Assembly: GCA_002793885.1 (NCBI GenBank)
Contig: PFEG01000041.1
Span: forward strand, 1-35,561
Length of the DNA: 35,561 nucleotides
Direction of reading: 5' to 3'
Source: Candidatus Saccharibacteria bacterium CG10_big_fil_rev_8_21_14_0_10_47_8
Lineage (GTDB): Bacteria > Patescibacteriota > Saccharimonadia > Saccharimonadales > UBA10212
The notes under the pieces are model-generated. The model was not told where the DNA came from. It did not search any database and was given only the letters and a program-made list of their open reading frames with translations. How positions within the stretch are numbered: position 1 is the first letter of the stretch; every line of letters starts with the position of its first letter. Below are positions 13,415-35,550 of this stretch, in pieces. The translations under genes and the position numbers were made by a program.

Positions 13415-13416
13415 TC

Positions 13417-17078: not shown

Positions 17079-17098
17079 TGAGTTAATGACCAGACTGT

Positions 17099-18475
17099 AT
17101 GGATAAAGATAAATCAAAAACTATCCCTCCTCAAAACCTGGAAGCCGAGGCCAGCTTGCTGGGCAGTTTGTTAATTGATGGCGAAGCTTTGACCAAGATC
17201 GGTGATATGATCCAACCCGAGGACTTTTTTGAGCAGAAGCACAAAGTGATTTTTACCGCCATGCGGGCTCTTTATGATAAACGCAGCCCGATCGATCTGC
17301 TAACATTAAGTGAGCAGTTAAAAAGTAACGATCGGCTGGATGTAATCGGTGGTGCCGGCTACCTTACCGAGCTAACAAACTTTGTGCCAACCGCCGCGCA
17401 TGTCGAACAATACGCCCAAATAGTCGCCGACAAAGCTATCAGGCGTCGGCTGATAGCTGCCAGCCAGGATATAGCCGATGTTGGTTTTGATGAAAAAAAG
17501 AGCTTGCAGGAACTTATTGAGGAAGCTGAATCGCGGTTATTCGAAGTCAGCCAGCGCCATGTGCGGCAAGACATTACCAGCTTGGAGTCAATCCTGGGCG
17601 ACAGTTTTGACCGGATTGATGATCTGCACCGTCATAAAGGCGGGCTTCGCGGTATAGCAACCGGCCTAGCAGATATCGATAAGAAGCTGGCTGGTCTACA
17701 AAGGTCGGATCTGATCGTATTGGCCGGAAGGCCGTCAATGGGCAAGACGGCGTTGATGCTTAACATAGCCCTAAATATCGCCACCCAGTCCAAGGAAGGC
17801 GCCGTGCTGATATTTAGCCTGGAAATGAGCAAGGAACAGCTGGTAGATCGTTTGTTAGCCGCTGAGGCGGGTGTGGGAGCGTGGGCACTGCGCACCGGCG
17901 AAGGCTTGACCGACAAGGACTTTGAGCGGCTTAGCGCCGCCATGGGCCAGTTGGCCGAGGCGCCAATCTTCATTGATGACACATCAGGAATAACGGTCAG
18001 TGATTTGCGCACCAAAGCTCGCCGGCTGCATCATCAACACCCCCTGTCTGTAATAATGGTTGACTATTTGCAGCTAATGAGTGGCGGGTCACGCTATGCC
18101 ACGGTAGCTAACCGAGTGCAGGAAATTTCTGAAATCAGCCGCAGCTTAAAAATATTAGCCCGTGAGCTTAACGTACCAGTGGTAGCTCTAAGCCAGCTGA
18201 GTCGATCTGTCGAGAGCCGCTCACCGCAGATTCCCCAGCTATCAGACTTGCGTGAATCCGGCTCTATCGAACAAGATGCCGATGTAGTGGCCTTCATATA
18301 CCGTGAAGATTACTATAACCCCGATAGTAGCCGCCAAAATATCGCCGACATATTAATCAAAAAACATCGCAACGGCCCAACTTCGAATTTAGGTGAGGTA
18401 GAACTATATTTTGATAGACAACGCCAGCGTTTCCGCGATCTTGACACTAAACATGCTACGTCAACTGAAAACTAA
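17099..18475 (+). CDS. dnaB: Replicative DNA helicase DnaB
   Basis: PPQNLEAEASLLGSLL N-terminus, Walker A GRPSMGKT, and the IMVDYLQLM and SQLSR motifs. Confidence 0.95.
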   Translation: MDKDKSKTIPPQNLEAEASLLGSLLIDGEALTKIGDMIQPEDFFEQKHKVIFTAMRALYDKRSPIDLLTLSEQLKSNDRLDVIGGAGYLTELTNFVPTAAHVEQYAQIVADKAIRRRLIAASQDIADVGFDEKKSLQELIEEAESRLFEVSQRHVRQDITSLESILGDSFDRIDDLHRHKGGLRGIATGLADIDKKLAGLQRSDLIVLAGRPSMGKTALMLNIALNIATQSKEGAVLIFSLEMSKEQLVDRLLAAEAGVGAWALRTGEGLTDKDFERLSAAMGQLAEAPIFIDDTSGITVSDLRTKARRLHHQHPLSVIMVDYLQLMSGGSRYATVANRVQEISEISRSLKILARELNVPVVALSQLSRSVESRSPQIPQLSDLRESGSIEQDADVVAFIYREDYYNPDSSRQNIADILIKKHRNGPTSNLGEVELYFDRQRQRFRDLDTKHATSTEN

Positions 18476-18495
18476 TTTTTGCTATACTAATACTT

Positions 18496-19683
18496 ATGCT
18501 TAAAGTGGTCAGTCGGCGGTTATCGCGACAGGCTTTGAAAAACGCGCTGGCTGTGCTGGGTGTAGTGTTCGGTACATATCTACTTTATATATGGCGGCTC
18601 GGGTCGCTAACGACCGGCCTTAGCCCTACTGAGTCTACGGCCCGACAGCTTAGTAGCAACCTTAGCTACATCTCGGACAACCCGATTAATGCCCCTCTGC
18701 GTTTGGTACAGTATTTAGCACAAAGCCTTGGTCACCACGGCGCATTTTATATGCGGTTTGCTTCGGTGTTCTTTATGGTGTTGTTTGTGGGCTGTCTTTA
18801 CCTGCTGCTAAAAACTTGGTTCGGGCGATTAGTTGGATTACTTGGCACGTTGCTGCTAGTAGGAACACCCTGGTTCATACTAATAGCCAGGAGCGCTAAC
18901 GCCACCGTTATGCTGCTGGCCCCTTTGGCTGTAATAGCTTCGTTTTTGTGGCTCACGAGCTCCAAAAAACAATCTAAGCTGGCCTGGCTAGCCCTGGTCT
19001 GCATAAGTGCCATCAGTTTATATATACCCGGCTTGGTCTGGTTTATTCTTGTAGCCGGCTGGATGCGCCGGCGTGAGTTGCTGGGCAGCCTAAAGTTTCA
19101 TGGGCTAGTCATAGTGTCCTTAAGCGCTTTGCTAGCCATTGCGATTATTGTTCCGCTGATATTAGCCATGGTCAACGATCTGTCAGTCGCCCGGCAACTG
19201 CTGTTACTGCCTGAGCACTGGCAGGGGCTAATTGGCAACTTAAAATCTACAGCCTGGTCTCTACTGGCACTGTTTTGGCGCACCCCTTACCACATAGACC
19301 TGATAATCGGCAGATTACCCCTGCTGAACATCACGCAGCTAGCCCTGGCAGTGTTCGGCTGTTATGCAATGTGGGCTAACGCACGGAAGGAAACATACAA
19401 TCTGCTGGCGATCCTAGCCGCCAGTATAATCTTCAGTGGCCTAAACGCTAATTTGGAGTTACTGACTTTAGCAGTCTTAGTAGTTTGCATATTTGCAGTT
19501 GCTGGCCTCCGTTATCTTTACGTAGAGTGGCGCGGCGTCTTCCCGCGCAACCCACTGCCAAAAGTACTAGCCCTTAGCCTGATGGCGCTGGTAGTCGGCA
19601 TACATCTGATGTTGGGGGTACGTTATGCTTTAGTGGCCTGGCCGCACACTCCATCCACGCATAGCCTGTACGTGATAAAATAA
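18496..19683 (+). CDS. Polytopic membrane protein (possible GT-C-type glycosyltransferase; function uncertain)
   Basis: 395-aa ORF with about 10 hydrophobic segments. The resemblance to ArnT/PMT-like proteins is only general. Confidence 0.5.
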   Translation: MLKVVSRRLSRQALKNALAVLGVVFGTYLLYIWRLGSLTTGLSPTESTARQLSSNLSYISDNPINAPLRLVQYLAQSLGHHGAFYMRFASVFFMVLFVGCLYLLLKTWFGRLVGLLGTLLLVGTPWFILIARSANATVMLLAPLAVIASFLWLTSSKKQSKLAWLALVCISAISLYIPGLVWFILVAGWMRRRELLGSLKFHGLVIVSLSALLAIAIIVPLILAMVNDLSVARQLLLLPEHWQGLIGNLKSTAWSLLALFWRTPYHIDLIIGRLPLLNITQLALAVFGCYAMWANARKETYNLLAILAASIIFSGLNANLELLTLAVLVVCIFAVAGLRYLYVEWRGVFPRNPLPKVLALSLMALVVGIHLMLGVRYALVAWPHTPSTHSLYVIK

Positions 19684-19713
19684 GGTCAGTAATTAGAGGA
19701 GTTAAAGTCAACG

Positions 19714-20007
19714 ATGAGTAAATTCGACCAGGCCAAGCTACTGATGAAGGCCAGAAAACTACAAAAAGAGCTGCAGAAGGAAATCATAACTACCGAAGCG
19801 GGTGACGGGGCAGTCAAGGTAGACATCACCGGAGAACAAAAAATTAAAAAGATACACATCGACCCCGAAGCAGTTGACCTAGATGATATCGGACAGCTTG
19901 AAATGTGGATCGAGGAAGCTGTAAAGGACGCTGTTAGTCAAAGTCAGAAACTGGCCGCCGAAAAGATGCAGCCGATGATGGGAGCATTAGGCAACCTGGG
20001 ATTATAA
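19714..20007 (+). CDS. ybaB: Nucleoid-associated protein YbaB/EbfC
   Basis: 97 aa; LMKARKLQKELQK...VKVDITGEQKIKKIHIDPEAV...LEMWIEEAVKDA is a typical YbaB layout. Upstream of recR, which is conserved synteny. Confidence 0.85.
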   Translation: MSKFDQAKLLMKARKLQKELQKEIITTEAGDGAVKVDITGEQKIKKIHIDPEAVDLDDIGQLEMWIEEAVKDAVSQSQKLAAEKMQPMMGALGNLGL

Positions 20008-20014
20008 CCACGGG

Positions 20015-20150
20015 TTGCAATTATCAATGTTCAATTCCCAATTATTAATCAATGATCAATTGCCAATGAATAATGTAGCTTCAGGTCATGTTTGTGAATT
20101 GTTAAATGTAAATTCAATGGAAATTGTAAATTGTGAAATAAAAATTGAGC
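20015..20150. repeat. AT-rich reiterated-word intergenic element B (ybaB-recR spacer)
   Basis: CAATTG/ATCAATG words occur in the 5' half and a C-poor 3' half follows. AAATTGTAAA lies at 20121-20130 and TGTAAATT at 20107-20114 and 20125-20132. The same words occur in element A. Confidence 0.4.
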
Positions 20151-20170
20151 CGACGCCAGGTGGCCCTTAA

Positions 20171-20782
20171 ATGAGTTTAAGTGCCATTCCACGATCGCTA
20201 GCTGCAGTTATTGAAGCCTTTGGCCAGCTGCCAGGCGTTGGACCACGCACTGCTGAACGTTATGCATATTATCTGTTGCGGGCCGATAAACTAAAGTCAA
20301 CCAGATTAGCGGAAGAGCTCGATAGGCTGCATGCCCAAGTAACTTATTGCCCCAGAACATTCGCGCTCATGGAAGTCGGCCAAAAAGTCAGCTCGCTTTA
20401 CAGCGACCCCAAACGCAACAAAAAAATGGTCGCCGTAGTGGCCGACCCTTTCGATATAATTGCGCTCGAGAAAACCAATGGTTTTTTGGGCACGTATCAC
20501 GTTTTAGGCGGCCTGGTCTCGCCAATAGACGGCATTGGACCTGAACAGCTGCACATTAAGGAGTTAGTTAAGCGAATTGACGAAGACAGAGTGGAAGAGG
20601 TGATCCTAGCCACAAACGCCAGTGTAGAAGGGGAAAGTACGGCGCTTTTGATTACACAGCAGTTGGGTGATAAAGCGGTTAAGATCACCAGGCTGGCCAG
20701 GGGCCTACCTATCGGTATCGATCTGGAATACGCCGACCAAATCACTCTGACACACGCCCTAGAAGGCCGCCAGATCTTCTAG
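20171..20782 (+). CDS. recR: Recombination protein RecR (zinc-finger cysteines largely absent)
   Basis: HhH region LPGVGPRTAERYAYYLL and Toprim region (VAVVADPFDIIALEKT, EVILATNASVEGESTA). The usual CxxC...CxxC segment reads YCPRTFALMEVGQKVSSLYSDPKR. Confidence 0.85.
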   Translation: MSLSAIPRSLAAVIEAFGQLPGVGPRTAERYAYYLLRADKLKSTRLAEELDRLHAQVTYCPRTFALMEVGQKVSSLYSDPKRNKKMVAVVADPFDIIALEKTNGFLGTYHVLGGLVSPIDGIGPEQLHIKELVKRIDEDRVEEVILATNASVEGESTALLITQQLGDKAVKITRLARGLPIGIDLEYADQITLTHALEGRQIF

Positions 20783-20827
20783 GGCTTAGAGCATCTTTGC
20801 CCCACCGGTGTTACAATAGATGCCATA

Positions 20828-21844
20828 ATGACTACATACAAAGAGGCTCAGGAAATACAAAGCATTATATCCGAAGCTAAAACCATAGCTATTATTCAGG
20901 CCGATAACCCTGATGTTGACAGCCTAGCCAGCTCCTTAGCACTAGAGCAAATTTTGCATGATCTAGGCAAAGACCCAATCATGTACTGCGGTGTTGATTT
21001 GCCATCATACATGCGCTATCTGCCCGGCTCTGACCGTGTTAATAAGGAAATGCCCCATAAGTTTGACGCCAGTGTGATAGTCGATACCAGTAGTGATAGC
21101 TTGCTGGAACAGCTAGACGTTTCCGGAGCTAAAGCTTGGCTGGCCGCTAAGCCAACCATCGTCATAGACCATCATGCCACCAAACCAACGATTAGTTTCG
21201 CCAACGTTATCTGCAACCACAGTGCGGTGTCTACCAGTGAAGTCATTTACGAGCTAAGTCGGCAGCTCGGTTGGGAGATTAACTTGGATGCGAAAAAACT
21301 CATCACTATGGCGATACTAAGTGACAGCCTGGGGCTAACTACCGAAGCAACATCGGCCCGCAGCATCCATATAGTCGCCGAATTAGTTGAGGGCGGTGTA
21401 AGCCTGCCAGAAATAGAAAACGCCCGCCGGGAAACAATGCGGCGCGACCCGGTATTAATACATTATAAGGGACGCTTACTAGAGCGCGTTGAGTTTCACG
21501 ATAGCAACCGCATAGCCACTTTAACTATCCCATGGGAAGAAATCGAAAAGTATAGCCCGCTATACAACCCGCCAATGCTGGTAATCGACGATATGCGGCT
21601 GGCCAAAGATACTAAGGTTGCCATTTGTTTTAAACTTTATCCAAACGGTAAAATAACAACAAAAATACGCTGCAACTGGGGCAGTGATATAGCCAACAAG
21701 CTGGCCGAGCATTTCGGCGGCGGCGGCCACCCGTACGCGGCGGGCTTTAAAATTCAAGATGGCCGTGATTTTAATACTCTCAAAAACGAGTGCATAAAAG
21801 TAGCCGCCGAGCTGCTTGATAATCTACAGGCTAAATCAACATGA
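20828..21844 (+). CDS. DHH-family phosphoesterase (NrnA-like oligoribonuclease/pAp phosphatase)
   Basis: DHH-family motifs DNPDVDSLAS, VIDHHAT and the DHHA1 motif GGGGHPYAAGF. Confidence 0.8.
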   Translation: MTTYKEAQEIQSIISEAKTIAIIQADNPDVDSLASSLALEQILHDLGKDPIMYCGVDLPSYMRYLPGSDRVNKEMPHKFDASVIVDTSSDSLLEQLDVSGAKAWLAAKPTIVIDHHATKPTISFANVICNHSAVSTSEVIYELSRQLGWEINLDAKKLITMAILSDSLGLTTEATSARSIHIVAELVEGGVSLPEIENARRETMRRDPVLIHYKGRLLERVEFHDSNRIATLTIPWEEIEKYSPLYNPPMLVIDDMRLAKDTKVAICFKLYPNGKITTKIRCNWGSDIANKLAEHFGGGGHPYAAGFKIQDGRDFNTLKNECIKVAAELLDNLQAKST

Positions 21845-23244
21845 AACTCTATAACACCCTAACTCGCAAAATTGAGGACCTAAAACCACTTAATCCTCCC
21901 GAAATTACGGTCTATACCTGTGGACCGACGGTTTACGATTATGCCCACATTGGGCACTGGTTTAATTATGTACGGATGGACATCCTTATTAGAGCGCTTA
22001 GTGTGGCTGGCTTTAGGCCTAAATGGGTTATGAACATTACTGATGTAGGACATTTAACCAGTGACGCCGACGAGGGCGAGGATAAGCTCGAGAAGGGCGC
22101 CCGGCGAGAAGGCAAAACCGCCTGGGAGGTTGCCGAATTTTATACCAAAGATTTTCTAGATGGTATGAAGCAACTCAACATTTTAGATCCTGACTATTTA
22201 GTTAAAGCCACCGACCACATTAACGATCAAATTACCCTGATACAAAAACTTGAAGCCAAGGGATACGCCTACGTTATCGATGACGGTGTTTACTACGACA
22301 CCAGTAAATTTACCGGCTACGCTAACTTTGCCAGACTTGATCTCGATGACCAGCAAGCCGGAGCCCGCGTATCGCTTAATCCCCAAAAACGTAATCCAAC
22401 CGACTTCGCGCTCTGGAAATTCTCGCCAAGGGATCACCGGCGAGAAATGGAATGGGAGAGCCCGTGGGGCAAGGGCTTTCCCGGTTGGCACATTGAGTGC
22501 TCAGCCATGTCAATGAAGTATTTGGGTGAGACTATTGATATTCATACCGGAGGTATTGACCACATTCCAATTCATCACACTAATGAAATCGCCCAGAGCG
22601 AAGCGGCTACTGGAAAACGATTCGCGAACTACTGGATGCATTCTAACCACGTGACGGTAAGTGGTGAAAAAATCTCCAAGTCGCTTGGTAACGGCATCAG
22701 ACTTGAAGATATAGTGAAAAGGGGCATTTCGCCCGAGGTTGTGCGCCTTCATGTACTGGAATCACATTACCGCAGCCAATCGAAGTTCAGCTGGCAGAGT
22801 CTTGAAGCCGCGCAAAATCGGCTTAAGGACCTGCAGGCCATGGCCGATCTTAGGTGGCAGTTAACTGACTCCGCCAAGCATAAACATACCGTAAACTTTA
22901 AACAACACATCTCCGCTTTGGATAGTGAACTAACCAGCGACCTCAACACTCCTCAAATACTAACCAGTCTAAGCGCTGTTTCGCACCTGCTAATGACCAA
23001 CCCAGTAACAAAAGATCAAAAAGCAGAATTTGAAGAATTTTTAGAACACATTGATGAGTCACTGGGCTTAAAACTTTTAGGTTCTCAAAACATCAGTCCC
23101 GAGCAAAAACAACTAATTGCAGAACGAGAGAAAGCACGTGCTGCTAGCGATTGGCTAACGTCCGATAAACTCCGCGATCAACTAAAAAAGCAAAATATAG
23201 AACTGCGCGATACTGAGTACGGTCCGATTTGGAATCGCAGCTAA
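21841..23244 (+). CDS. cysS: Cysteinyl-tRNA synthetase
   Basis: HIGH (YAHIGH), the WHIECS zinc/cysteine-site motif and KMSKS-type KISKSLGN. ATGA overlap with the upstream gene. Confidence 0.95.
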   Translation: MKLYNTLTRKIEDLKPLNPPEITVYTCGPTVYDYAHIGHWFNYVRMDILIRALSVAGFRPKWVMNITDVGHLTSDADEGEDKLEKGARREGKTAWEVAEFYTKDFLDGMKQLNILDPDYLVKATDHINDQITLIQKLEAKGYAYVIDDGVYYDTSKFTGYANFARLDLDDQQAGARVSLNPQKRNPTDFALWKFSPRDHRREMEWESPWGKGFPGWHIECSAMSMKYLGETIDIHTGGIDHIPIHHTNEIAQSEAATGKRFANYWMHSNHVTVSGEKISKSLGNGIRLEDIVKRGISPEVVRLHVLESHYRSQSKFSWQSLEAAQNRLKDLQAMADLRWQLTDSAKHKHTVNFKQHISALDSELTSDLNTPQILTSLSAVSHLLMTNPVTKDQKAEFEEFLEHIDESLGLKLLGSQNISPEQKQLIAEREKARAASDWLTSDKLRDQLKKQNIELRDTEYGPIWNRS

Positions 23245-27788: not shown

Positions 27789-27862
27789 TTCGGGATCGTC
27801 TAATGGTAGGACACTGGGTTTTGGTCCCAGCAATCTAGGTTCGAATCCTAGTCCCGAAGCCA
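27789..27862 (+). tRNA. tRNA-Gln (anticodon UUG)
   Basis: Hand-folded cloverleaf: acceptor TTCGGGA/TCCCGAA, D arm GTCT-AATGGTA-GGAC, anticodon arm CTGGG-TTTTGGT-CCCAG and T arm CTAGG-TTCGAAT-CCTAG. Discriminator is G and CCA is encoded. U1-A72 and G73 fit Gln identity. Confidence 0.9.
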
Positions 27863-27879
27863 TAATTTAAGTTAAGGCA

Positions 27880-27929
27880 TCCCGATAGAATCGGGACATT
27901 AGGGAGTTCGAATCCCTGTCTGTCTACCA
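27880..27929 (+). other. tRNA-like 3'-half remnant (anticodon-arm-like hairpin, degenerate T arm, ACCA end)
   Basis: TCCCG-ATAGAAT-CGGGA hairpin, then GGGAGTTCGAATCCCTG and TCTGTCT-A-CCA. No matching 5' acceptor strand or D arm can be built, and there is too little room after tRNA-Gln for a full tRNA. Confidence 0.25.
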
Positions 27930-27950
27930 GATTGGACATCAAAGAAGTAC

Positions 27951-27984
27951 AGACCGGTTCCTATGACCGGTCTTTCTTTTTACC
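27951..27984 (+). terminator. Rho-independent terminator downstream of tRNA-Gln
   Basis: AGACCGG (27951-27957) pairs with CCGGTCT (27967-27973), followed by TTCTTTTT. Confidence 0.65.
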
Positions 27985-28181: not shown

Positions 28182-28478
28182 CTATACCTCGAGCAGTCTA
28201 ACTTTTACTGATGTAGTATTCCCGATTTGGAGGTCCTCATTTTTCCGGACATCTTTTTTAACAGGCAGAAGATAACTCCTAGATTTGCTGTCAGGAAAAA
28301 TTGATGTTCTCCAAGCTGTCTTGCCAATGGTTGCTTCAACCCTCACTGACCCGAAGCCCCGCTTTGGGGCGGCGTTTATCAGACGAATTTCCTCATAATA
28401 CTTTTTAGGTAAAGATATAAAGCACCAAGCTCCTTGACCTTGCCATTCCCACAGTTCAGCTTTAAACGTCAGCTCCAT
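28182..28478 (-). CDS. DUF1905 domain protein
   Basis: 98 aa. The WCFISLP...GFGSVRVEATIGKTAWRTSIFPDSKSRSYLLPVKKDVRK pattern is typical of DUF1905. Confidence 0.75.
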   Translation of the reverse strand: MELTFKAELWEWQGQGAWCFISLPKKYYEEIRLINAAPKRGFGSVRVEATIGKTAWRTSIFPDSKSRSYLLPVKKDVRKNEDLQIGNTTSVKVRLLEV

Positions 28479-28591
28479 GCCTACAAGTATAAACGCTCAA
28501 TTACTATTACTATGTATATAAAATAGCTTGTGACTCCTCGCAAGCAACCACAAGCTATCAGCCAGCATAATATCAAATCGTTTACATTAAG

Positions 28592-28610
28592 TTAAGTGTT
28601 TGCTTAAATA
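28592..28610 (+). promoter_or_regulatory. Operator 1: TTAAGTGTTTGCTTAAATA (palindrome TTAAG-N6-CTTAA) within the dsbA-like promoter
   Basis: Identical 19-mer to 29882-29900. It lies between a -35-like TTTACA (28581-28586) and overlaps a -10-like TAAATA (28605-28610). ATG at 28618 follows 7 nt later, suggesting a leaderless transcript. Confidence 0.55.
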
Positions 28611-28617
28611 TGTAAAC

Positions 28618-29307
28618 ATGAAACTTCTTCTTAGCTCTATTGCTGCGATTTTAATAGTTAGTATAGGGCTTTTTATATTTTGGCCGAGCGAAGCACCATC
28701 AACCGCCCAAAATAATACTACTTCTCCAGCTGTTGCCGCTCCCGAAACGCCCTCAGCCCAAACCACCGAACTTATTATCGGAGACCCGAATGCCAAGGCT
28801 ACCATTATTGAGTATGCTGATTACAAATGTCCGTCCTGCGGTGAATTTCATCAAAAAGCTGGCAAGCAACTACGTGCTAATTACGTTGATAAAGGGCTCT
28901 TGAAAATAGTATTCAGGCCTTTCCCTGTGTATGCCGTAGATGGTGCCCAGGCGCTGGTTGGATCGTATTGTGCGAAAGACCAGCAACAATTTACCGAGTA
29001 CCACGATGTTTTGTTCGAATATATGTGGGTGAACCACTTCCGGCAGGGAGATTATCAAAAAGCTATTGATACCGTGCTGACAGAAAGTGTTATGAACGAT
29101 CTAATGAAAAATATAGGCATGGACCCGAAAGTCTATAAAGAATGTATGGATAGTAAGAAACACGATAAAGCCTATTACGATACTATTGATCTAGCCGCAC
29201 CCGATGAAATTCAAGGTACGCCAAGCTTTATCATTAACGGGCAAAAGATCGTTGGCCCGCAGCCGTATAGCGTATTTAAAACACTGGTGGATATTCAACT
29301 ACAATGA
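28618..29307 (+). CDS. Membrane-anchored/secreted DsbA-family thiol:disulfide oxidoreductase (CPSC)
   Basis: N-terminal hydrophobic anchor (LLLSSIAAILIVSIGLFIFW), IIEYADYKCPSCGEFH active site and GTPSFIINGQ cis-Pro region. ATG 28618 is preferred over the TTG at 28600, which lies inside the operator. Confidence 0.8.
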   Translation: MKLLLSSIAAILIVSIGLFIFWPSEAPSTAQNNTTSPAVAAPETPSAQTTELIIGDPNAKATIIEYADYKCPSCGEFHQKAGKQLRANYVDKGLLKIVFRPFPVYAVDGAQALVGSYCAKDQQQFTEYHDVLFEYMWVNHFRQGDYQKAIDTVLTESVMNDLMKNIGMDPKVYKECMDSKKHDKAYYDTIDLAAPDEIQGTPSFIINGQKIVGPQPYSVFKTLVDIQLQ

Positions 29308-29879
29308 GCTGGCCAAAACTGTGGTTATTAAAGCTGAAAATTAGCCTGAGGTCTGCCCTCAAAGTGTTTCGGCGACCAGCATATATTGTACTAGCCCTAT
29401 TAACTACCCTTGTCGCTAGTGGTTCGATTCTCTGGTCGCTCAATCTTGATCTACTGCGCTATATAATCTTCGAGGCACCTATAAGTGCCCTCGCCAAAGT
29501 CGATTTTTTCTTTGATATATATAAAGGTGTCTATACTGACTTCAGCAGCGCCCAAAGTACTCTGGTAGTGATTTTTTCAGTTTTATTTGGTATAAACCTA
29601 GCCTTGCTGGTTTTCGTACTGAAGCACCGAGGCTTCAAAGCTATCCCAAAGAAAAGTGGTGCGGGCGGATTTGCTTTAGCAATAATCGGTGGAGGCTGTA
29701 TTGCCTGCGGAACATCCTTAATTGCTCCGCTGCTTGCTACTTTCGGCGCTTCTGCCACGCCACTTATCCGAGACCTGGCAACTGTATTCACCTTTATTGG
29801 CAGCCTACTCATCATATATTCCATATACAAACTAGGTGCTGTGTGTTCGTATATATTTACTTCGCAGGACTTGACTTAA
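29304..29879 (+). CDS. Four-TM membrane protein with intramembrane GGGCIACG (CxxC) motif, translationally coupled to the DsbA-like gene
   Basis: ATGA overlap with the dsbA-like stop. There are four hydrophobic segments. Basic residues in the N-terminus and the TM2-TM3 loop predict that both face the cytoplasm. CIAC sits mid-TM3. I recognise no family assignment. Confidence 0.7.
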   Translation: MSWPKLWLLKLKISLRSALKVFRRPAYIVLALLTTLVASGSILWSLNLDLLRYIIFEAPISALAKVDFFFDIYKGVYTDFSSAQSTLVVIFSVLFGINLALLVFVLKHRGFKAIPKKSGAGGFALAIIGGGCIACGTSLIAPLLATFGASATPLIRDLATVFTFIGSLLIIYSIYKLGAVCSYIFTSQDLT

Positions 29880-29881
29880 GA

Positions 29882-29900
29882 TTAAGTGTTTGCTTAAATA
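29882..29900 (+). promoter_or_regulatory. Operator 2: TTAAGTGTTTGCTTAAATA within the arsR-family gene promoter
   Basis: Identical to operator 1. -35 TTGACT at 29871-29876, 18-nt spacer, -10-like TAAATA at 29895-29900, and ATG at 29907 follows 6 nt later. Confidence 0.55.
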
Positions 29901-29906
29901 GTTAAT

Positions 29907-30206
29907 ATGAAATTACTTAAAAACCGTCCGGTAAAGCTAAATAATCGCGAAGAGCGTCTAGTTAGCGCAATGCAATTACTTGGCGATCAAACCCGCTTTA
30001 AGATCTTCAAACTCTTGCTGTCGGGAAGAGAGATGTGCGTTACTGAGATCGCCGATGCAATCGGTATTTCTGTCCCAGCTGTTTCTCAGCATTTCCGTAT
30101 TTTCGAACTGGTTGGTTTGGTTGAAAAGCAGCGGTATGGACAGAAAATCTGCTATTTACTGAAAACTGAGGACCAGTTTGTTAAAGAATTAATCCGCATA
30201 GTTTAA
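29907..30206 (+). CDS. ArsR/SmtB-family winged-helix transcriptional repressor (two cysteines)
   Basis: LLGDQTRFKIFKLLLSGREMCVTEIADAIGISVPAVSQHFRIFELVGLV is a canonical ArsR HTH core. The only Cys residues are in EMCV and KICY. Confidence 0.85.
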   Translation: MKLLKNRPVKLNNREERLVSAMQLLGDQTRFKIFKLLLSGREMCVTEIADAIGISVPAVSQHFRIFELVGLVEKQRYGQKICYLLKTEDQFVKELIRIV

Positions 30207-30226
30207 ACCTACAAGAAGGAGGGTGT

Positions 30227-30478
30227 ATGTCTAAGATAACAATTTATAGTACTGCGACTTGCGCCTATTGCAAGATGCTTAAAGGCTATCTGCAAAGCAA
30301 AGATATTGCCTACGAGGAAAAGCACGTTGACCAGGACCAGTCTCTGGCAATGGAAATGTATGAAAAAAGCGGGCAGATGGGTGTGCCATTCACTGTCATA
30401 GAGAAAGAGGACGGCAGCGAAGAAAAGATCCTCGGCTTTGACAGGCAAAGGGTTGATAGCGTATTAGGACTCGCCTAA
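30227..30478 (+). CDS. Glutaredoxin/NrdH-like small redoxin (CAYC)
   Basis: ITIYSTATCAYCKMLKGYL and the GVPFTVI cis-Pro motif. 83 aa, preceded by a strong SD (AAGGAGG). Confidence 0.8.
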   Translation: MSKITIYSTATCAYCKMLKGYLQSKDIAYEEKHVDQDQSLAMEMYEKSGQMGVPFTVIEKEDGSEEKILGFDRQRVDSVLGLA

Positions 30479-30483
30479 AGCCT

Positions 30484-30780
30484 ATGAAAGCGCTCTGGAA
30501 GAATAAAACGATTGCCGAGAGTGACGACACCATAACGATAGAAGGTAATATTTACTTCCCGCCGCATTCGGTAAATCACAACTTCTTAGAGAAAAGCGGG
30601 TTTCACACACTCTGCTATTGGAAGGGTTTGGCCAGCTATTACCATGTCAGCGACAACAAGAACCGCGATAAAAATATTGCCTGGTATTACCCTCGTCCGA
30701 CCTGGCTGTCGAAGAAAATAATGGGGAAAGACTTTTCTAACTATGTAGCCTTTGACGGACGGATGAAAGTAACCTCATGA
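30484..30780 (+). CDS. DUF427 domain protein (paralog 1)
   Basis: IAESDD...IEGNIYFPP...CYWKGLASYY...AWYYPRP...YVAF is the characteristic DUF427 motif order. Confidence 0.75.
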   Translation: MKALWKNKTIAESDDTITIEGNIYFPPHSVNHNFLEKSGFHTLCYWKGLASYYHVSDNKNRDKNIAWYYPRPTWLSKKIMGKDFSNYVAFDGRMKVTS

Positions 30781-30790
30781 GGAGTATACA

Positions 30791-31255
30791 GTGAAGAGAC
30801 GGACTATTTTCCTTATCCTAATAGTGATCTTTATTGCTTTAGGCACAGCGCTGCTGGCTGTGGCGAATATTGATGATAAGCAGAATACACAAGACGTAAA
30901 AGTAATAAACGAGGCCGCGTCAAATAATGGCGCCGTCGGTTCTTCTGCCGCTTATAGAGCTTATTCACCAGAAGCAGTTGCCTCAGCCTCGGCGCAGGAT
31001 AAGATAGTACTCTTCTTCCATGCCAGCTGGTGCCCTACCTGCCATGTACTTGATAAGGACATTACAGACAACTCAGATAAGATCCCAGCTAATGTACGCA
31101 TCCTGAAAGCAGACTTTGACAACGAAACCGAACTTAAAAAGAAGTATGGAGTCAGGCTCCAGCATACCCTTGTCCAAGTCGATAAAAATGGCCAAAAGAT
31201 TGCTTTATGGAGCCAGAGCCCAAGCTTATCTGATGTATTAAACGAGTTGCAGTAA
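30791..31255 (+). CDS. Membrane-anchored extracytoplasmic thioredoxin-like protein (WCPTC)
   Basis: GTG start after GGAG, an N-terminal TM anchor (IFLILIVIFIALGTALLAV), and the LFFHASWCPTCH thioredoxin active site. Confidence 0.8.
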   Translation: MKRRTIFLILIVIFIALGTALLAVANIDDKQNTQDVKVINEAASNNGAVGSSAAYRAYSPEAVASASAQDKIVLFFHASWCPTCHVLDKDITDNSDKIPANVRILKADFDNETELKKKYGVRLQHTLVQVDKNGQKIALWSQSPSLSDVLNELQ

Positions 31256-31256
31256 C

Positions 31257-32888
31257 ATGGAACTAGTTATCCTTTCATTGCTGGCTGGCGTGTTGACGGT
31301 CCTGTCGCCGTGCGTACTGCCTTTGCTGCCTGTTGTATTGGCAGGTTCGGCGGCTGAAAAGAGTAAACGCGCGCCACTCATAATTATTGGCAGCCTCGCT
31401 ATATCAGTTATAGCCTTTACGCTGCTCATTAGAGGTAGCACATTGTTGCTTGGCGTGCCGAGTAGCGTATGGTTGATTGTGTCTGGAGCGCTGGTAACTT
31501 TCATCGGTATCACGCTGGTATTTCCGGCAGTATGGGAGTGGATGACCATAAAATTACATTTGCAGGATGAAGCCGGGCGCCTAACAGCGATATCCAGTAA
31601 AAGAGCTGGCAATACCCGTAATGTTTTACTTGGGCTCTCGCTTGGCCCGGTCTTTACAAGTTGTAGCCCAACCTACGGCTTGATACTGGCAACTGTGCTC
31701 CCGACAAGTTTTGCGGTCGGTACGATCAATCTTATAGCTTACAGCCTTGGCTTAAGCGCAGTTTTATTAGCTGTAGCTTACGGTGGGCAGCGTGTCACAA
31801 AACGTCTCGGATGGGCCATAGACCCGATGAGCAAGTTCAGGCGTGGGCTAGGTATATTTATTGTAATAGTTGGTTTACTTATTATGACTGGACTAATTAA
31901 AGACGCTGAGACTTGGCTGGTAGACCGCGGCCTGCTCGGCACTACTAAATTTGAACAGCGGCTACTTGACTCCGACAGCGATACCAAAAATAAAGCCAGT
32001 AAAGATGTACCGGATTTCTTGCTTAAGTCTTTTCCTAAAACAGACTGGTCAAAAGCAGATCCGACGATCAGCAAAGCCTTGAGTGGTGGCCCAGGTAAAG
32101 ACGGCATTCCCGCCATAGATGAACCCAAATTCGAACCAATTGGTAATTTCAAGCATTCGGATAGCGTACAAGCGATCGTTATTGAGGATAAAGACACGGT
32201 CAGAGTCTACCCGTATAACATTCTAACTTGGCATGAAATCGTCAACGATACAGTAAATGGCAAACCTCTCGCTATCACTTTCTGCCCACTATGCGGCAGC
32301 GCCATTGTTTACAATCGAACTCTGCCAGATGGTGTCAGCACCTTTGGCGTCAGCGGAGCATTGATTGAGAGCAATATGGTGATGTTTGACCGCGGCAGCG
32401 AAACACTCTGGCAACAAAGTACTGGTCAGGCGCTGGCCGGAAGGCACTTTGGCCAAAAACTTGAACTAGTTAAATTTCAACTGCTTACTGTGGGTGAAAT
32501 AAAGTCAAAATATTCAAATGCCCAGATTATGAGCGAGAACACCGGTCACAGCCGGGATTATGCACGAAATCCATATTCTGGTTACGAAGACAGTGACGAT
32601 TTCTTCTTCAGCCCGAGCGATACTGACAAGCGCTATCCGTCTAAATCTATATTTGTAGTATTTGATGTAGATGGCACTTCGGTAGCTGTTCCCTGGCTAG
32701 AACTAAAGAACGAGCAAGTCTACGATACACAAGTTAATGGGCAAACCATAAAGCTCAGCAAGAGCGATAACGAACTGACAATTACTAAGTCCGACGGGGC
32801 AGAAATACCGTTTTATTTTGAAATGTGGTTCTCGTGGGCTGTTCAGTATCAGGACAAGGGAGTCGTGTTTGATCCAACTAAACAATAA
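31257..32888 (+). CDS. CcdA/DsbD-type transmembrane thiol-electron transporter fused to a C-terminal DUF3179 domain
   Basis: TM1 reads LSPCVLPLLP and TM4 reads FTSCSPTYG (the two CcdA cysteines). After about residue 270, GKDGIPAIDEPKF and FCPLCGSAIVY are typical of DUF3179. It starts 1 nt after the thioredoxin-like gene. Confidence 0.8.
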   Translation: MELVILSLLAGVLTVLSPCVLPLLPVVLAGSAAEKSKRAPLIIIGSLAISVIAFTLLIRGSTLLLGVPSSVWLIVSGALVTFIGITLVFPAVWEWMTIKLHLQDEAGRLTAISSKRAGNTRNVLLGLSLGPVFTSCSPTYGLILATVLPTSFAVGTINLIAYSLGLSAVLLAVAYGGQRVTKRLGWAIDPMSKFRRGLGIFIVIVGLLIMTGLIKDAETWLVDRGLLGTTKFEQRLLDSDSDTKNKASKDVPDFLLKSFPKTDWSKADPTISKALSGGPGKDGIPAIDEPKFEPIGNFKHSDSVQAIVIEDKDTVRVYPYNILTWHEIVNDTVNGKPLAITFCPLCGSAIVYNRTLPDGVSTFGVSGALIESNMVMFDRGSETLWQQSTGQALAGRHFGQKLELVKFQLLTVGEIKSKYSNAQIMSENTGHSRDYARNPYSGYEDSDDFFFSPSDTDKRYPSKSIFVVFDVDGTSVAVPWLELKNEQVYDTQVNGQTIKLSKSDNELTITKSDGAEIPFYFEMWFSWAVQYQDKGVVFDPTKQ

Positions 32889-32901
32889 TAAGGAGTAAGA
32901 T

Positions 32902-33204
32902 ATGCAAGCAATTTGGAATAACAAAGTAATCGCCGAGGCAGACAAAAAAGACCTGATATATATTGAAGGTAACTGGTACTTTCCACCCGACGCAATTAAA
33001 AAAGAATTCCTCAAGCCTACGGATAAACACACCACCTGCTTCTGGAAGGGTCTGGCCAGCTATTACCAAGTCGACGTAGATGGCGAAGTTAATGAAGACG
33101 GAGCCTGGTACTACCCCGATCCTACGCCCAGTGCTATTGATAAAGTTAAGAAAGATTTCACGGATTATGTTGCCTTTTGGCACGGCGTGGAAGTTAAAGA
33201 GTAG
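32902..33204 (+). CDS. DUF427 domain protein (paralog 2)
   Basis: IAEADK...IEGNWYFPP...CFWKGLASYY...AWYYPDP...YVAF. About half of the positions are identical to paralog 1 by hand alignment. Confidence 0.75.
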   Translation: MQAIWNNKVIAEADKKDLIYIEGNWYFPPDAIKKEFLKPTDKHTTCFWKGLASYYQVDVDGEVNEDGAWYYPDPTPSAIDKVKKDFTDYVAFWHGVEVKE

Positions 33205-33213
33205 ACTATAAAT

Positions 33214-35550
33214 ATGAACACAAAGATTGATGCCGAACATAACATTCCTACGATATTGGTTGTATTCGGTGCAACTGGCGATCTGATGGCGCGCAAGCTG
33301 GCACCAGCATTGTTAAAACTATATGAGCGGAATCTCTGCCCTGATAAGTTCGCAGTCGTAGGCTTTGCCAGGCGCGACTTGGGTGACGAAGGCTTTCGCG
33401 CCCATGTAGATAAAACCCTGAGGGCGTACCCTGCTAAGCCAGGAACATACGATAAATTTCAGCAAATTCTAAACTACCTTCGTGGTGATTTTAACGAAGC
33501 AGATGCCTATAAAAAGCTTAGCCAAAAGCTAAAGTCTATTGACGACCAGTGGGGCGTCTGTACCAATAAGCTGTTTTATCTGGCTGTGCCACCGGAGAAT
33601 TACGAATCAATCTTTACGAATTTAGCTAAATCAGGACTAACTGAGCCATGCGGAGGCGATGACGGTTGGACCAGAGTTTTAGTTGAAAAACCCTTCGGCA
33701 AGGACCTTGACCAGGCAATCAAGCTAGATAAGCTGCTCGGAACATTGTTCGAGGAAGAGCAAATCTATCGGATCGATCATTACCTGGCAAAAGAGGCCAT
33801 TCAGAACATCCTGGCCTTCCGATTCGCTAATAATTTCCTTGAAGCATCATGGGATAGTAGTGGCATTGAGAAAATTGAGATCAAATTGCTGGAAGCTATT
33901 GATATTGAAGGCCGTGGCGGGTTTTATGACAGCGTCGGCGCACTGCTGGATGTAGGCCAAAATCACCTTCTGCAAATGCTAGCGCTGGTGACAATGGATA
34001 ATCCTATTGATTTAACGTCTGATCATATCCGTGACAAGCGAGCGGAGATTATCGAATCTATTGAGCCTATCAAAGACCCATTGGCCAACACTTCCCGGGC
34101 TCAATATGCGGGATATACTTCTGAAGACAACGTTGATTCTAACTCTGTCACGGAAACGTATTTTAAAATCCAAACTAGCCTTAAGCACCCCTCGTGGCAA
34201 GGCGTCCCGATCATACTGGAAGCTGGTAAAAAGTTGCCTAAAGCCGACAAGCAGATAATCATCACCTATCGGCATCCTTCGCCTTGTCTCTGCCCGGGTG
34301 ATGTTCATTACAAGAATCAGCTGTACGTCCACATTCAGCCCGATCCGGGCATCGCGATTAGGTTCTGGTCAAGGAAGCCAGGAACCAAGGATGAGCTGGA
34401 GGAGCAGTGGTTAAAATTTGATTACCCTCTGGGCGAGACGGCTCGCTACACAGAAGAGTATACCCAGTTACTACTTGACGCCATTGCTGGCGATCAAACC
34501 TTGTTTGTCTCCAGCCGCGAAACCATGGCCAGTTGGCGTTTTATTGACCCAATTGAACGGTCCTGGCGAGCTAGCGCCGAGAACCTGTTGCGCTATTCCA
34601 GCGACAAGCCTTTGCCGGACGTACAGCCGGAACACTCAACTCTAGATATAAAGAAGGAGATCGGTGTCGTGGGCTTAGGCAAGATGGGCTATAACCTAGG
34701 CCTTCGACTTAGCGAAAAGGGCTGGAAGGTGCTGGGATTTGACACCAAGCCACCAACCCAAAACCAATTGCTCACAGTAGCTTCCTACCAGGAACTGGTT
34801 CGCAAACTGAGAGGACCACGACTGATTTGGCTAATGGTACCTTCAACTGTTGTTGACGATGCATTATTTGGCAAAGATGGATTGAGTGATATTTTGGAGC
34901 CGGGCGATATCATCATCGACGGTGGCAATTCTCACTATAAAGAATCGCAAAAAAGAGCCAAAAAATTGGCAACCAGTGGTATCGAGTTTATTGATGTCGG
35001 AGTTTCTGGCGGACCAAATGGTGCCAGAACCGGCGCATCGCTAATGATTGGTGGAAAACAAGAATTGTTTGAACAGTGGGAGCCGCTATTTGCTGATTTA
35101 AGCGTTGAAAATGGCTACAAATTCTTCGCGGGATCGGGTGCCGGTCATTTCGTTAAAATGATCCATAATGGGATAGAGTACGGCATGATGCAGGCCATCG
35201 CTGAGGGATTTACAGTGCTTAAAACAGCCAAGTTTGACCTCAAATTGGTGGATATTGCTAGTATCTACAACCACGGCAGTGTAATTGAATCCCGCTTGAT
35301 AGCCTGGCTGGAACAAGCATTCAGAGTTCATGGGGAAGGACTCGACACGGTCAGCGGCAGTGTTGGCCATACTGGCGAAGGTGAATGGACTATAGGGGCC
35401 GCCAAGCAATTTGGTATCAAAGCTAAATTCATAGAAGAAGCTCTAAATTTCCGCAAGGCCTCTGAATCTAATCCTAGTTACACCGGACAGATACTTTCGG
35501 CTATGCGTGAGCAGTTCGGAGGCCATACGGTTAAAGTGAGCAAAAAATAA
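33214..35550 (+). CDS. zwf/gnd: Fusion protein: glucose-6-phosphate dehydrogenase (N) + 6-phosphogluconate dehydrogenase, short YqeC/GndA-like type (C)
   Basis: Zwf motifs are VVFGATGDLMARKLAPAL, EKPFGKDL and RIDHYLAKE. From residue 483 (nt 34660) a Gnd-like Rossmann motif IGVVGLGKMG begins, followed by GAGHFVKMIHNGIEYGMMQAIAEGF. This is a single uninterrupted 778-aa ORF. Confidence 0.9.
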   Translation: MNTKIDAEHNIPTILVVFGATGDLMARKLAPALLKLYERNLCPDKFAVVGFARRDLGDEGFRAHVDKTLRAYPAKPGTYDKFQQILNYLRGDFNEADAYKKLSQKLKSIDDQWGVCTNKLFYLAVPPENYESIFTNLAKSGLTEPCGGDDGWTRVLVEKPFGKDLDQAIKLDKLLGTLFEEEQIYRIDHYLAKEAIQNILAFRFANNFLEASWDSSGIEKIEIKLLEAIDIEGRGGFYDSVGALLDVGQNHLLQMLALVTMDNPIDLTSDHIRDKRAEIIESIEPIKDPLANTSRAQYAGYTSEDNVDSNSVTETYFKIQTSLKHPSWQGVPIILEAGKKLPKADKQIIITYRHPSPCLCPGDVHYKNQLYVHIQPDPGIAIRFWSRKPGTKDELEEQWLKFDYPLGETARYTEEYTQLLLDAIAGDQTLFVSSRETMASWRFIDPIERSWRASAENLLRYSSDKPLPDVQPEHSTLDIKKEIGVVGLGKMGYNLGLRLSEKGWKVLGFDTKPPTQNQLLTVASYQELVRKLRGPRLIWLMVPSTVVDDALFGKDGLSDILEPGDIIIDGGNSHYKESQKRAKKLATSGIEFIDVGVSGGPNGARTGASLMIGGKQELFEQWEPLFADLSVENGYKFFAGSGAGHFVKMIHNGIEYGMMQAIAEGFTVLKTAKFDLKLVDIASIYNHGSVIESRLIAWLEQAFRVHGEGLDTVSGSVGHTGEGEWTIGAAKQFGIKAKFIEEALNFRKASESNPSYTGQILSAMREQFGGHTVKVSKK

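Follow-up and report, generated by a model that had tools for sequence, protein, structure and literature searches.

The closest described relatives of the gene array reported here are the CcdA-Etrx-MsrAB pathway of Streptococcus (PMC3914529, PMC7034828) and the ScsABCD system (PMC10907172, PMC11634996). The array itself consists of nine genes, most of them encoding thiol-redox proteins, at the end of a 35,561-nucleotide (nt) stretch of a contig from the metagenome bin Candidatus Saccharibacteria bacterium CG10_big_fil_rev_8_21_14_0_10_47_8 (PFEG01000041.1, assembly GCA_002793885.1); this whole stretch is called the window below. In the streptococcal pathway electrons are drawn from the cytoplasm in a Gram-positive-type envelope without cytochrome c maturation, and CcdA is encoded beside a membrane-tethered thioredoxin (Trx) and a terminal surface enzyme. 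Scs is a stress-induced envelope set with links to copper, which combines a membrane reductant relay with a DsbA-fold protein and an anchored Trx-like protein. Members of the DsbD/CcdA superfamily carry two conserved cysteines in the first and the fourth transmembrane (TM) segment. The pairs DsbA-DsbB, BdbD-BdbC and DsbA/MdbA-VKOR join a DsbA/BdbD-like protein to a small 4-TM CxxC protein. Among the ArsR-type sensors, BigR/SqrR and TsoR are small repressors with two conserved cysteines and no complete metal site, encoded inside their own presumed operons. The BigR/SqrR cysteines lie in alpha2 and alpha5.

The nine open reading frames (ORFs) of the array (28600/28618-35550) all lie on the forward strand and are separated by -4, 27, 20, 5, 10, 1, 13 and 9 nt, gaps that are smaller than those across the remainder of the window. 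In order, they encode a DsbA-like protein, a 4-TM membrane protein (here TM4), an ArsR/SmtB-family repressor, a glutaredoxin-like redoxin (Grx), a DUF427 protein, an anchored Trx, CcdA fused to DUF3179 (CcdA::DUF3179), a second DUF427 protein and a Zwf-Gnd fusion. An initial annotation of the window had described nine packed, co-directional genes with these domains, and ORF coordinates, Pfam and NCBIfam bear this out.

The array resembles the streptococcal pathway in its setting and in the neighbourhood of CcdA. It differs from it in that the terminal enzyme would be DUF3179, fused to CcdA, that no MsrA or MsrB domain occurs in the nine proteins, and that ArsR-type control, Grx, DUF427 and a putative second membrane relay are added. 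With Scs it shares the general composition and also a copper link, since genes for CsoR and a CopA-type ATPase stand beside a Grx::TM4 fusion in a related locus. Unlike Scs, it has neither ScsB/DsbD-type alpha or gamma domains nor ScsA, its relay candidates are the 6-TM CcdA and TM4, and its DsbA-like protein matches BdbD (E=5e-13) better than it does ScsC (about 1e-4). The outward domain at the C-terminus of CcdA recalls DsbD gamma; it is DUF3179, however, mostly beta and not of Trx fold. The translational coupling of a DsbA/BdbD-like protein to a 4-TM CxxC protein is reminiscent of the DsbB, BdbC and VKOR pairs, whereas TM4 has one Cys pair, placed within the membrane, and its family is linked to Grx and to flavoprotein disulfide reductases (FDRs). 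The ArsR cysteines lie in alpha3 and the wing rather than at the BigR/SqrR positions, and the TsoR and BigR scores are far below their cutoffs. With these precedents (PMC3914529, PMC7034828, PMC10907172), the occurrence of CcdA without cytochrome c, which the initial annotation had found surprising, is not exceptional. No cytochrome c, ccm, ccs or resA-type genes were detected in the window or its 10-kb extension and no thioredoxin reductase gene in the window, as had been stated for cytochrome c, ccm and thioredoxin reductase.

The searchable literature held no account of such a system and no functional study of DUF3179, DUF427, Saccharibacteria DsbA or Patescibacteria CcdA (several matches for 'DUF427' actually concern DUF4276 or DUF4278), in agreement with the earlier suggestion of an undescribed system. 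The terminal DUF3179, its fusion to CcdA, the TM4 relay candidate, the Grx-DUF427 cassette and the ArsR-type control are undescribed there. The overall logic is that of CcdA/Scs-type envelope thiol systems in a variant form, the mechanism being deduced from genomic context.

In this study, we show that eight of the nine genes recur together in related genomes, in modules that stay linked through rearrangement. We propose, with medium confidence, that most of the nine genes constitute a modular Saccharibacteria thiol-redox regulon under an ArsR/SmtB-type repressor, which would carry cytoplasmic reducing power to cysteine proteins of the cell surface. The proposal builds on gene content, homologies, conserved cysteines, co-conservation, a cis-element and the Grx::TM4 fusion.

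Results

Conservation of the gene set in related loci

About 110 related loci (L001 onwards) were compared overall. A one-genome-per-species scan gave 311 CcdA::DUF3179 relatives, 80 loci of which were analysed, and the ORFs of relative loci were searched by phmmer with the window proteins. In 58 of 60 evaluable loci the gene of the anchored Trx immediately precedes that of CcdA(-DUF3179); these loci belong to Saccharibacteria, Paceibacteria, Kaiserbacteria, Microgenomates-type lineages and Micrococcales. ArsR occurs in 24 of 81 DUF3179 loci, mostly directly upstream of (Grx-)Trx, Grx in 14 and DUF427 in three of them. A complete Saccharibacteria genome of 1.05 Mb (L084) has the first eight genes in the same order (dsbA-TM4-arsR-grx-DUF427-trx-ccdA::DUF3179-DUF427, 59-81% amino-acid identity), followed by a TM4 paralogue and an FDR. 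Elsewhere the arrangement is divergent: dsbA-TM4-arsR-grx-DUF427 faces away from FMN_red-trx-ccdA-DUF3179-grx in L073 and from DUF3179 and trx in L095-L097. Three modules are thus conserved, namely DsbA-TM4, ArsR-Grx-DUF427 followed by an FMN reductase or FDR, and anchored Trx with CcdA::DUF3179. Linkage that survives such rearrangement supports a functional unit, from which Zwf-Gnd is to be excepted. Co-conservation of the thiol/disulfide genes, the evidence that the initial annotation had called for, was found, with DUF3179 and DUF427 as embedded members.

Alternatively, independent housekeeping redox genes could simply be packed side by side in a compact genome. Closely spaced genes in long runs of one direction are usual for the window (e.g. 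5033-23244), the array runs on into sugar metabolism and unrelated genes, and DsbA-TM4 as well as ArsR-Grx-DUF427 are each found alone elsewhere. Against this, the linkage outlasts rearrangement (L073, L084, L088, L095-L097), the same rare 18-mer stands ahead of two transcription units (see below) and Trx adjoins CcdA::DUF3179 across phyla. We regard chance packing as highly improbable.

The anchored thioredoxin and CcdA::DUF3179

The thioredoxin (30791..31255; Thioredoxin, 6.6e-10) has a signal-anchor and the active site WCPTC. The following gene (31257..32888) encodes a protein of 543 residues, 100% identical to NCBI entry COU91_03105, in which a 6-TM CcdA is fused to an extracytoplasmic DUF3179 domain. 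As a single sequence the CcdA half reaches 25.6 bits, just under the Pfam cutoff of 27.1; a 22-sequence family profile matches the solved CcdA 5VKV (E=1.5e-10), and CcdA is the only match of the fusion profile among PDB sequences. Cys19 in the first and Cys136 in the fourth TM segment are invariant in the 22 sequences, as in the CcdA/DsbD_TM family. The Trx acceptor with which a CcdA works would be provided, to judge from genomic context, by the anchored Trx directly upstream in the evaluable loci.

DUF3179 is recognised by PF11376 with 250.8 bits (cutoff 27), and its AlphaFold2 (AF2) model is mostly beta (pLDDT 80-94). Invariant residues include D282, W325-H326-E327 (the WHE motif), N330-D331, C343-P-L-C346-G-S with the conserved CPLC at 343-346, W385, Q387 and P439-Y440. 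As read from the sequences, DUF3179 is predicted to face the outside, since CcdA follows the positive-inside rule and both DsbA and Trx carry signal-anchors. DUF3179 is a listed selenoprotein family of the type UxxC/T (PMC9312934, PMC13188914); selenocysteine in place of the first motif Cys in some organisms favours redox catalysis. A Foldseek search with the AF2 model gave nothing at E<0.03; the high-probability matches (0.97-0.99) were only Rieske ferredoxins over about 100 residues, with E of 0.04-0.12. These matches are weak and local, and WH...CPLCG was mapped onto the two Rieske loops by eye, which makes them a lead and not a result.

The window protein was also compared with Micrococcales (31257-32888 with L004-L014, L038, L041, L049 and L057). 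CcdA::DUF3179 is 57-65% identical to proteins of Cryobacterium, Arthrobacter, Salinibacterium and Rhodoglobus and only 42-57% identical to those of most other Saccharibacteria. In a neighbour-joining tree the window clade is nested among actinobacterial clades, and the actinobacterial genes have host-like GC content. An identity of 62-65% is seen between CcdA::DUF3179 proteins of Saccharibacteria and those of Micrococcales. This suggests an old exchange of the gene, in either direction, between Saccharibacteria and the phylum of their hosts.

The DsbA-like protein and the TM4 family

The first gene encodes a BdbD/DsbA-like thiol:disulfide oxidoreductase (28618..29307) with an N-terminal membrane anchor and the active site CPSC; the mechanically called ORF begins at a TTG at 28600, and an ATG is found at 28618. 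The protein matches Thioredoxin_4 (PF13462; 97.6 bits, cutoff 23.2, 1.1e-27) and DSBA (PF01323; 50.6 bits, cutoff 25.6, 2.7e-13). Its nearest solved relative is BdbD of B. subtilis (3eu3, E=4.9e-13), which shares the motif DYKCPSC, whereas ScsC proteins match only at about 1e-4. With profile scores above threshold and its CPSC aligned to that of BdbD, it is a member of the DsbA/BdbD proteins. No DsbB/VKOR recycling partner was seen in the window or in related loci, and the partner that is conserved, TM4, is not related to these.

TM4 (29304..29879) overlaps dsbA by 4 nt and contains CIAC. The 31 aligned members of the family share a single invariant motif, GC[IVA]ACGTS, which lies within the third TM segment and supplies one Cys pair. 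TM4 has no match in Pfam or NCBIfam, DsbB/VKOR included, even at E<=1. When its AF2 model (pLDDT 80) was compared with the PDB by Foldseek, nothing was found below E=0.9, and neither DsbB nor VKOR was among the matches listed. An assignment of TM4 to DsbB/VKOR was therefore rejected: it has one Cys pair rather than two, the pair is inside the membrane, and there is no profile or fold similarity. The family is large, with 1067 clusters at 50% identity (E<=1e-3). Among 23 metagenome loci retrieved with it, the DsbA-like gene is directly upstream of TM4 in 17 of the 18 evaluable ones, often with the 4-nt overlap, and ArsR directly follows TM4 in eight. The dsbA-TM4 pair is also found alone, once between rpoC and rpsL (L086).

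A protein of Saccharimonadales (P0223, NCBI MEO6761159.1) carries Grx at the N-terminus of a TM4 paralogue. The Grx part closely resembles the Grx of the array, and the fusion is present in two independent assemblies. It places the N-terminus of TM4 in the cytoplasm and ties the family to a cytoplasmic redoxin. Moreover, a TM4 paralogue immediately precedes the FDR gene in L084, and in L116 a further TM4 paralogue comes after ArsR and a remnant of DUF427. Taken together, these three arrangements favour an outward flow of reductant. In L114 (6001-10634) the genes after the Grx::TM4 fusion encode a CsoR-family repressor, a SHOCT protein and a heavy-metal P-type ATPase, and NQR/RNF-like, ApbE and FMN_bind genes lie upstream of it.

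The initial annotation had spoken of an oxidising arm formed by these genes. The identity of the DsbA-like protein stands; the oxidising direction is questionable, given a partner without DsbB/VKOR similarity and the Grx fusion in its family. From these sequence relationships we favour TM4 as a minimal membrane relay that would pass electrons from Grx to the DsbA-fold protein, as ScsB does to ScsC, so that the supposed oxidising arm may be a second reducing arm. The rival is strong. In it, DsbA and TM4 would be an oxidative folding pair, TM4 would be a new and possibly quinone-independent replacement of DsbB/VKOR, and the pair would share no more than its regulation with a distinct reducing pathway (Trx-CcdA::DUF3179), which amounts to the oxidising-plus-reducing picture of the initial annotation. 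The oxidase BdbD is the best solved relative and shares CPSC, adjacency and translational coupling are strict in 17 of 18 loci, the pair occurs alone in housekeeping contexts such as that of L086, and none of the retrieved loci showed a DsbB or VKOR. On the other hand, TM4 has its single conserved Cys pair inside a membrane segment, resembles DsbB/VKOR neither by Pfam or NCBIfam nor by Foldseek, and is coupled to cytoplasmic reductant by the Grx fusion and by the paralogue beside an NAD(P)H-type FDR; besides, reductase or isomerase activity is known from DsbA-fold proteins, ScsC among them (PMC10907172, PMC11634996). An oxidative pair is thus possible, if somewhat doubtful.

The ArsR repressor and a shared 18-bp element

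The ArsR/SmtB-family repressor (29907..30206) matches HTH_5 (PF01022; 53.3 bits, 2.5e-14) and NF033788 (71.3 bits, cutoff 55). Cys44 in alpha3 is aligned with Cys61 of SmtB, an alpha3 ligand. Cys82 in the wing is kept in 23 of 26 aligned ArsR proteins from related loci, and the three exceptions are secondary copies or outliers. Daviesbacteria-type homologues have lost Cys44 and gained a second wing cysteine (RCGQLICY). No complete known metal site is present in the protein (no N-terminal Cys/His, no alpha5 His/Asp, no CVC triad), which makes a thiol-switch sensor the most economical reading of its sequence. The NCBIfam matches to BigR (28 bits) and TsoR (27 bits) are weak.

Two identical 18-mers, TTAAGTGTTTGCTTAAAT, are found on the forward strand at 28592..28609, 8 nt before the dsbA-like ATG (28618), and at 29882..29899, 7 nt before the ATG of arsR; they are the only exact copies in the 35.5-kb window. 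The element consists of a TTAAG-N6-CTTAA dyad that overlaps an extended -10-like box, TGnTTAAAT. Degenerate versions stand at matching positions in the contig itself (L001-L003) and in 16 further relative loci; they stand, among others, before dsbA at the same position in L084, L073, L088, L089, L090 and L099 and before arsR in L084, L073, L009, L087, L097, L100, L101, L107, L110 and L113. The motif is absent from L085 and L086, where dsbA-TM4 has no adjoining arsR. We infer that the 18-mer is a predicted ArsR operator lying over two promoters with near-leaderless transcripts. A conserved operator-like element ahead of both dsbA and arsR fits the earlier description of the genes as ArsR-gated. 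Scans for sigma-70 promoters and terminators within the array gave near-chance counts and no convincing internal terminator.

The family of the regulator also invites another explanation, in which the locus serves primarily to resist metals or metalloids (copper, mercury, arsenic or selenium): ArsR would sense the metal, a His/Cys knuckle of DUF3179 would bind or reduce it, and the relays would keep metal-binding cysteines reduced. Several observations speak for it, beginning with Cys44 at the alpha3 ligand position of SmtB. CopA-type P-type ATPases are encoded near the module in five loci, a Cys/His-rich protein precedes the FDR in seven, the neighbouring FDRs are MerA/LpdA-like, and the Grx::TM4 fusion adjoins CsoR and a heavy-metal ATPase. 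In DUF3179, CPLCG is of knuckle type with the invariant His326, Glu327 and Asp331 close by, and Rieske ferredoxins are matched at a probability of 0.97-0.99. Scs, too, ties copper to envelope thiols (PMC10907172). We nevertheless consider metal resistance unlikely. ArsR has neither the alpha5 His/Asp site nor the N-terminal ligands of the alpha3N site, no metal transporter is encoded in the window or the 10 kb downstream, the UxxT variants among DUF3179 selenoproteins suit a catalytic role better than a chelating one, and the Foldseek E-values (0.04-0.12) are weak.

In the Microgenomates-type loci L059, L064, L065, L067, L068, L077 and L079, the FDR gene is closely preceded by that of the small Cys/His-rich protein, which has about 68 residues (CMACSCPCDMHKEH...CSKCG).

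The glutaredoxin-like redoxin and DUF427

The cytoplasmic glutaredoxin/NrdH-like redoxin (30227..30478; Glutaredoxin, 7e-14) has the active site CAYC, and its CxxC is kept in 14 homologues. Its top NCBIfam match is the YruB family with 72 bits, under the cutoff of 88.55. A Grx-like CEHC protein of 102 residues was noted in five loci (L059, L062, L064, L065, L068).

The two DUF427 copies, a (30484..30780; 4.9e-23) and b (32902..33204; 2.3e-26), match PF04248 with 81.2 and 91.9 bits (cutoff 22.1). DUF427 is a beta-tent protein of about 100 residues whose one conserved Cys belongs to T-x-C-x-WKG; it contains neither a nucleotide nor a flavin domain. It matches the solved DUF427 structure, PDB entry 3DJM (E=1e-3), and the alignment brings the conserved Cys residues together. 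Copy b has more than 120 homologue clusters at 66-99% identity. Grx and DUF427 are adjacent in L073, L084, L088, L095, L096, L100, L110 and L113, and a stand-alone ArsR-Grx-DUF427-FMN_red cassette is present in L110 and L113. The initial annotation had put DUF427 forward as the link from NADPH to the redoxin. A single-Cys beta-tent domain of this size, without nucleotide or flavin domain, is unlikely to oxidise NADPH; yet DUF427 is consistently paired with Grx. It is possibly a Grx-dependent reductase, to judge from this pairing.

Zwf-Gnd and the reductases downstream

The ninth gene (33214..35550) encodes Zwf (glucose-6-phosphate dehydrogenase, G6PD) fused to a short-form Gnd (6-phosphogluconate dehydrogenase) and is a neighbour rather than a conserved member of the set. 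The Zwf half matches TIGR00871 (450.6 bits, cutoff 400.6); the Gnd half matches TIGR00872 (321.3 bits, cutoff 297.2) and NF007161 (327 bits, cutoff 271), that is, NAD- and NADP-annotated models alike. Only eight of 81 loci have Zwf or Zwf-Gnd at 10 kb or less from the DUF3179 module, and L084, the closest complete relative, has the TM4 paralogue and FDR instead. Zwf-Gnd may possibly supply the array with NAD(P)H; it is not the dedicated core part for which it had been taken. Zwf-Gnd fusions also occur in metagenome-assembled genomes of Parcubacteria, Levyibacteriota and Actinobacteria (L029, L067, L071) and are recurrent, not unique.

The window ends 11 nt past zwf-gnd, while on the public contig (L001/L002) the co-directional array continues for about ten genes. 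The array is cut by the window end, so that both the count of nine genes and the lack of a reductase are window-edge effects. An FMN reductase gene begins 21 nt after zwf-gnd and is followed by genes for a 122-residue CxxC protein, a G6PD C-terminal fragment, an unknown protein of 316 residues and an alpha-glucosidase-family enzyme. A class-I FDR with GGECLWNGCVPSK is encoded, again co-directionally, 4.3 kb past the window end. The earlier statement that no thioredoxin reductase is present holds within the window, and flavoprotein reductases are encoded just beyond its edge. None of the FDRs and FMN reductases reaches an NCBIfam equivalog cutoff. A class-I FDR is found in 31 of 81 DUF3179 loci.

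With these flavoproteins in view, the model of the initial annotation can be judged as a whole. It saw a self-contained island in which Zwf-Gnd is a dedicated NADPH generator and DUF427 takes the place of a thioredoxin reductase. In the window one DUF427 copy does follow Grx immediately and the other immediately precedes Zwf-Gnd, the Grx-DUF427 adjacency is conserved, and the eight of 81 loci with Zwf or Zwf-Gnd near the module, from several phyla, are more than the roughly 2% expected by chance (20 kb in a 1-Mb genome, by our estimate). However, DUF427 has no Rossmann or flavin domain, flavoproteins are far more consistently linked (FDR as given above; FMN_red after DUF427 in L110 and L113), and zwf-gnd is absent from the closest complete relative. 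Gnd further has an Asp at the end of beta2 (VLGFD), which would usually favour NAD, with NAD and NADP models both matching. We judge this model very unlikely.

Several further observations concern the downstream genes. The 122-residue protein (L001, 14882-15250) belongs to a family with the motif Y-x-C-x-L-C-x-x-(T/S)-Y that has no match in Pfam or NCBIfam; it also occurs in L009, L065, L067, L068, L077, L084 and L088, is repeatedly encoded next to an FDR or FMN reductase in these redox gene neighbourhoods and could act as a small partner redoxin. The G6PD fragment (L001, 15261-15596) is a free-standing ORF of 111 residues, 1 kb downstream of the full zwf-gnd, whose match to the G6PD C-terminal domain (PF02781, 9e-24) is confined to the final 90 residues of that domain; it looks like a duplicated fragment or remnant. 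FDRs of about 690 residues with a C-terminal VTT/DedA-type membrane domain are encoded directly after CcdA::DUF3179 in the Patescibacteria loci L020, L023, L028, L032, L048, L056 and L081.

Boundaries and composition of the array

The initial annotation had taken the array for a low-GC island behind a tRNA gene. The nine genes have a GC content of 0.457 against 0.461 in the other genes of the window, their GC at third codon positions (GC3) is 0.471 against 0.463, and their codon usage is not distinguishable from that of the others (p about 0.08); composition thus equals that of the window remainder. A tRNA-Gln gene (27789-27862), the sole match in an Rfam scan, does lie 756 nt upstream, and is kept apart from the array by a bidirectional terminator-like hairpin (27951-27973) and a DUF1905 gene on the opposite strand (28182-28478). 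Integrase or transposase genes are absent from the window. A horizontally acquired genomic island was accordingly rejected: there is no deviant composition, the tRNA gene lies behind another gene, and mobility genes are missing in the window.

In five other loci (L051, L058, L072, L077, L078), too, a DUF1905 gene is no more than a few kb away from DUF3179. The stretch right after tRNA-Gln (27863-27930) contains a perfect T-arm-like hairpin (GGGAGTTCGAATCCC), and its 3' end looks like an acceptor strand with CCA. ARAGORN and Rfam report no tRNA in this stretch, which may be the remnant of a tRNA 3' part.

Other features of the window

The remainder of the window is of housekeeping type, with aminoacyl-tRNA synthetase genes, secE-nusG-L11-L1, L10-L7/12, dnaX, dnaB, recR and glycosyltransferases. 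Its true compositional outlier is 2566-4895 (GC 0.35-0.40, GC3 0.30-0.33), a region with three ORFs without Pfam match (1898-2677, 3542-4120, 4185-4895) and overlapping ORFs on both strands. In an ORF of 669 residues (11405-13414), adjoining dCTP deaminase, a thymidylate kinase domain (residues 11-201) occurs together with a weak ThyX-like region (472-627); the product may be a fused enzyme of dTMP/dTDP synthesis. Ribosomal protein L1 (9571-10578) has a predicted N-terminal extension of about 140 residues, its L1 domain covering 141-329 of 335; the extension could be genuine or an artefact of an upstream start codon.

Discussion

The regulon that we propose would work as follows. NAD(P)H would reduce a flavoprotein, for which an FDR, FMN reductase or thioredoxin reductase encoded just beyond the window is a candidate, and the flavoprotein would in turn reduce the cytoplasmic Grx-like redoxin (CAYC). 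From there two relays may cross the membrane. The first would run via CcdA (Cys19/Cys136) and the anchored Trx (WCPTC) to the fused, outward DUF3179 (CPLC), the second via TM4 with its one intramembrane CxxC to the BdbD-like DsbA (CPSC). The surface proteins would hold or restore thiols in the reduced state, or reduce an extracellular substrate, under thiol-reactive stress by oxidants or copper-type metals. ArsR would sense the stress through Cys44 and Cys82 and release an operator overlapping the dsbA and arsR promoters. DUF427 would be a small cytoplasmic single-Cys protein of the regulon, linked to Grx and possibly a Grx-dependent reductase, and Zwf-Gnd a loosely linked source of NAD(P)H. 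Analogues with the same logic are CcdA-Etrx-MsrAB (PMC3914529, PMC7034828) and ScsBCD (PMC10907172). We infer each electron-transfer step and its direction, the inducer and the substrate of DUF3179 from genomic context.

A more far-reaching reading joins the three unusual families, and we offer it tentatively. TM4 proteins would be an unrecognised, minimal and quinone-free transmembrane thiol-disulfide relay between a cytoplasmic glutaredoxin and a surface DsbA-fold protein, doing the job of DsbD/ScsB or of a reversed DsbB/VKOR in reduced-genome Patescibacteria. DUF3179 would be a new extracytoplasmic reductase, dependent on Cys or selenocysteine, that receives its electrons from CcdA-Trx; DUF427 would be a new single-Cys enzyme that depends on Grx. 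The absence of quinones from Saccharibacteria was not used as an argument; at least one Saccharibacterium has been reported with NADH dehydrogenase and a terminal oxidase (PMC6031116).

Several points weigh against the proposed regulon. The direction of electron flow cannot be read from sequence. With the oxidase BdbD as its closest solved relative, the DsbA-TM4 pair may be oxidative, and only one Grx::TM4 fusion cluster was seen. CPLCG is a classic metal-binding knuckle, and together with the Rieske matches this means that DUF3179 might bind metal and not undergo disulfide cycling; its loci were retrieved by patterns including FCPLCGS and PFYFEMW, which makes the invariance of these motifs partly one by construction. 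The 18-mer, read here as an ArsR operator, could instead be an element of a promoter. The downstream FDR gene is broken up into an ORF of 424 residues (L001, 18596-19870) and one of 55 residues in another frame (19870-20037), this FDR class is not known as an established reductant of Grx/NrdH-like proteins, and a canonical TrxB may be encoded elsewhere in the genome.

As to the split itself, the 55-residue ORF resembles the missing C-terminus of the FDR dimerisation domain. Gene calls and coordinates are the same in two independently reported contigs (ENA, JGI), so that the split may be a real pseudogene or a frameshift site.

Conclusions

The surface disulfide chemistry of the ultra-small, host-dependent Patescibacteria is essentially unstudied; we found no paper on it. 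The locus described here and its relatives tie DUF3179, DUF427 and an unnamed family of 4-TM CxxC proteins to well-understood thiol relays and thereby give them a first functional context, together with a candidate operator and a Rosetta-stone fusion. If TM4 is indeed a new membrane thiol relay, it would represent a third architecture beside DsbD/CcdA and DsbB/VKOR.

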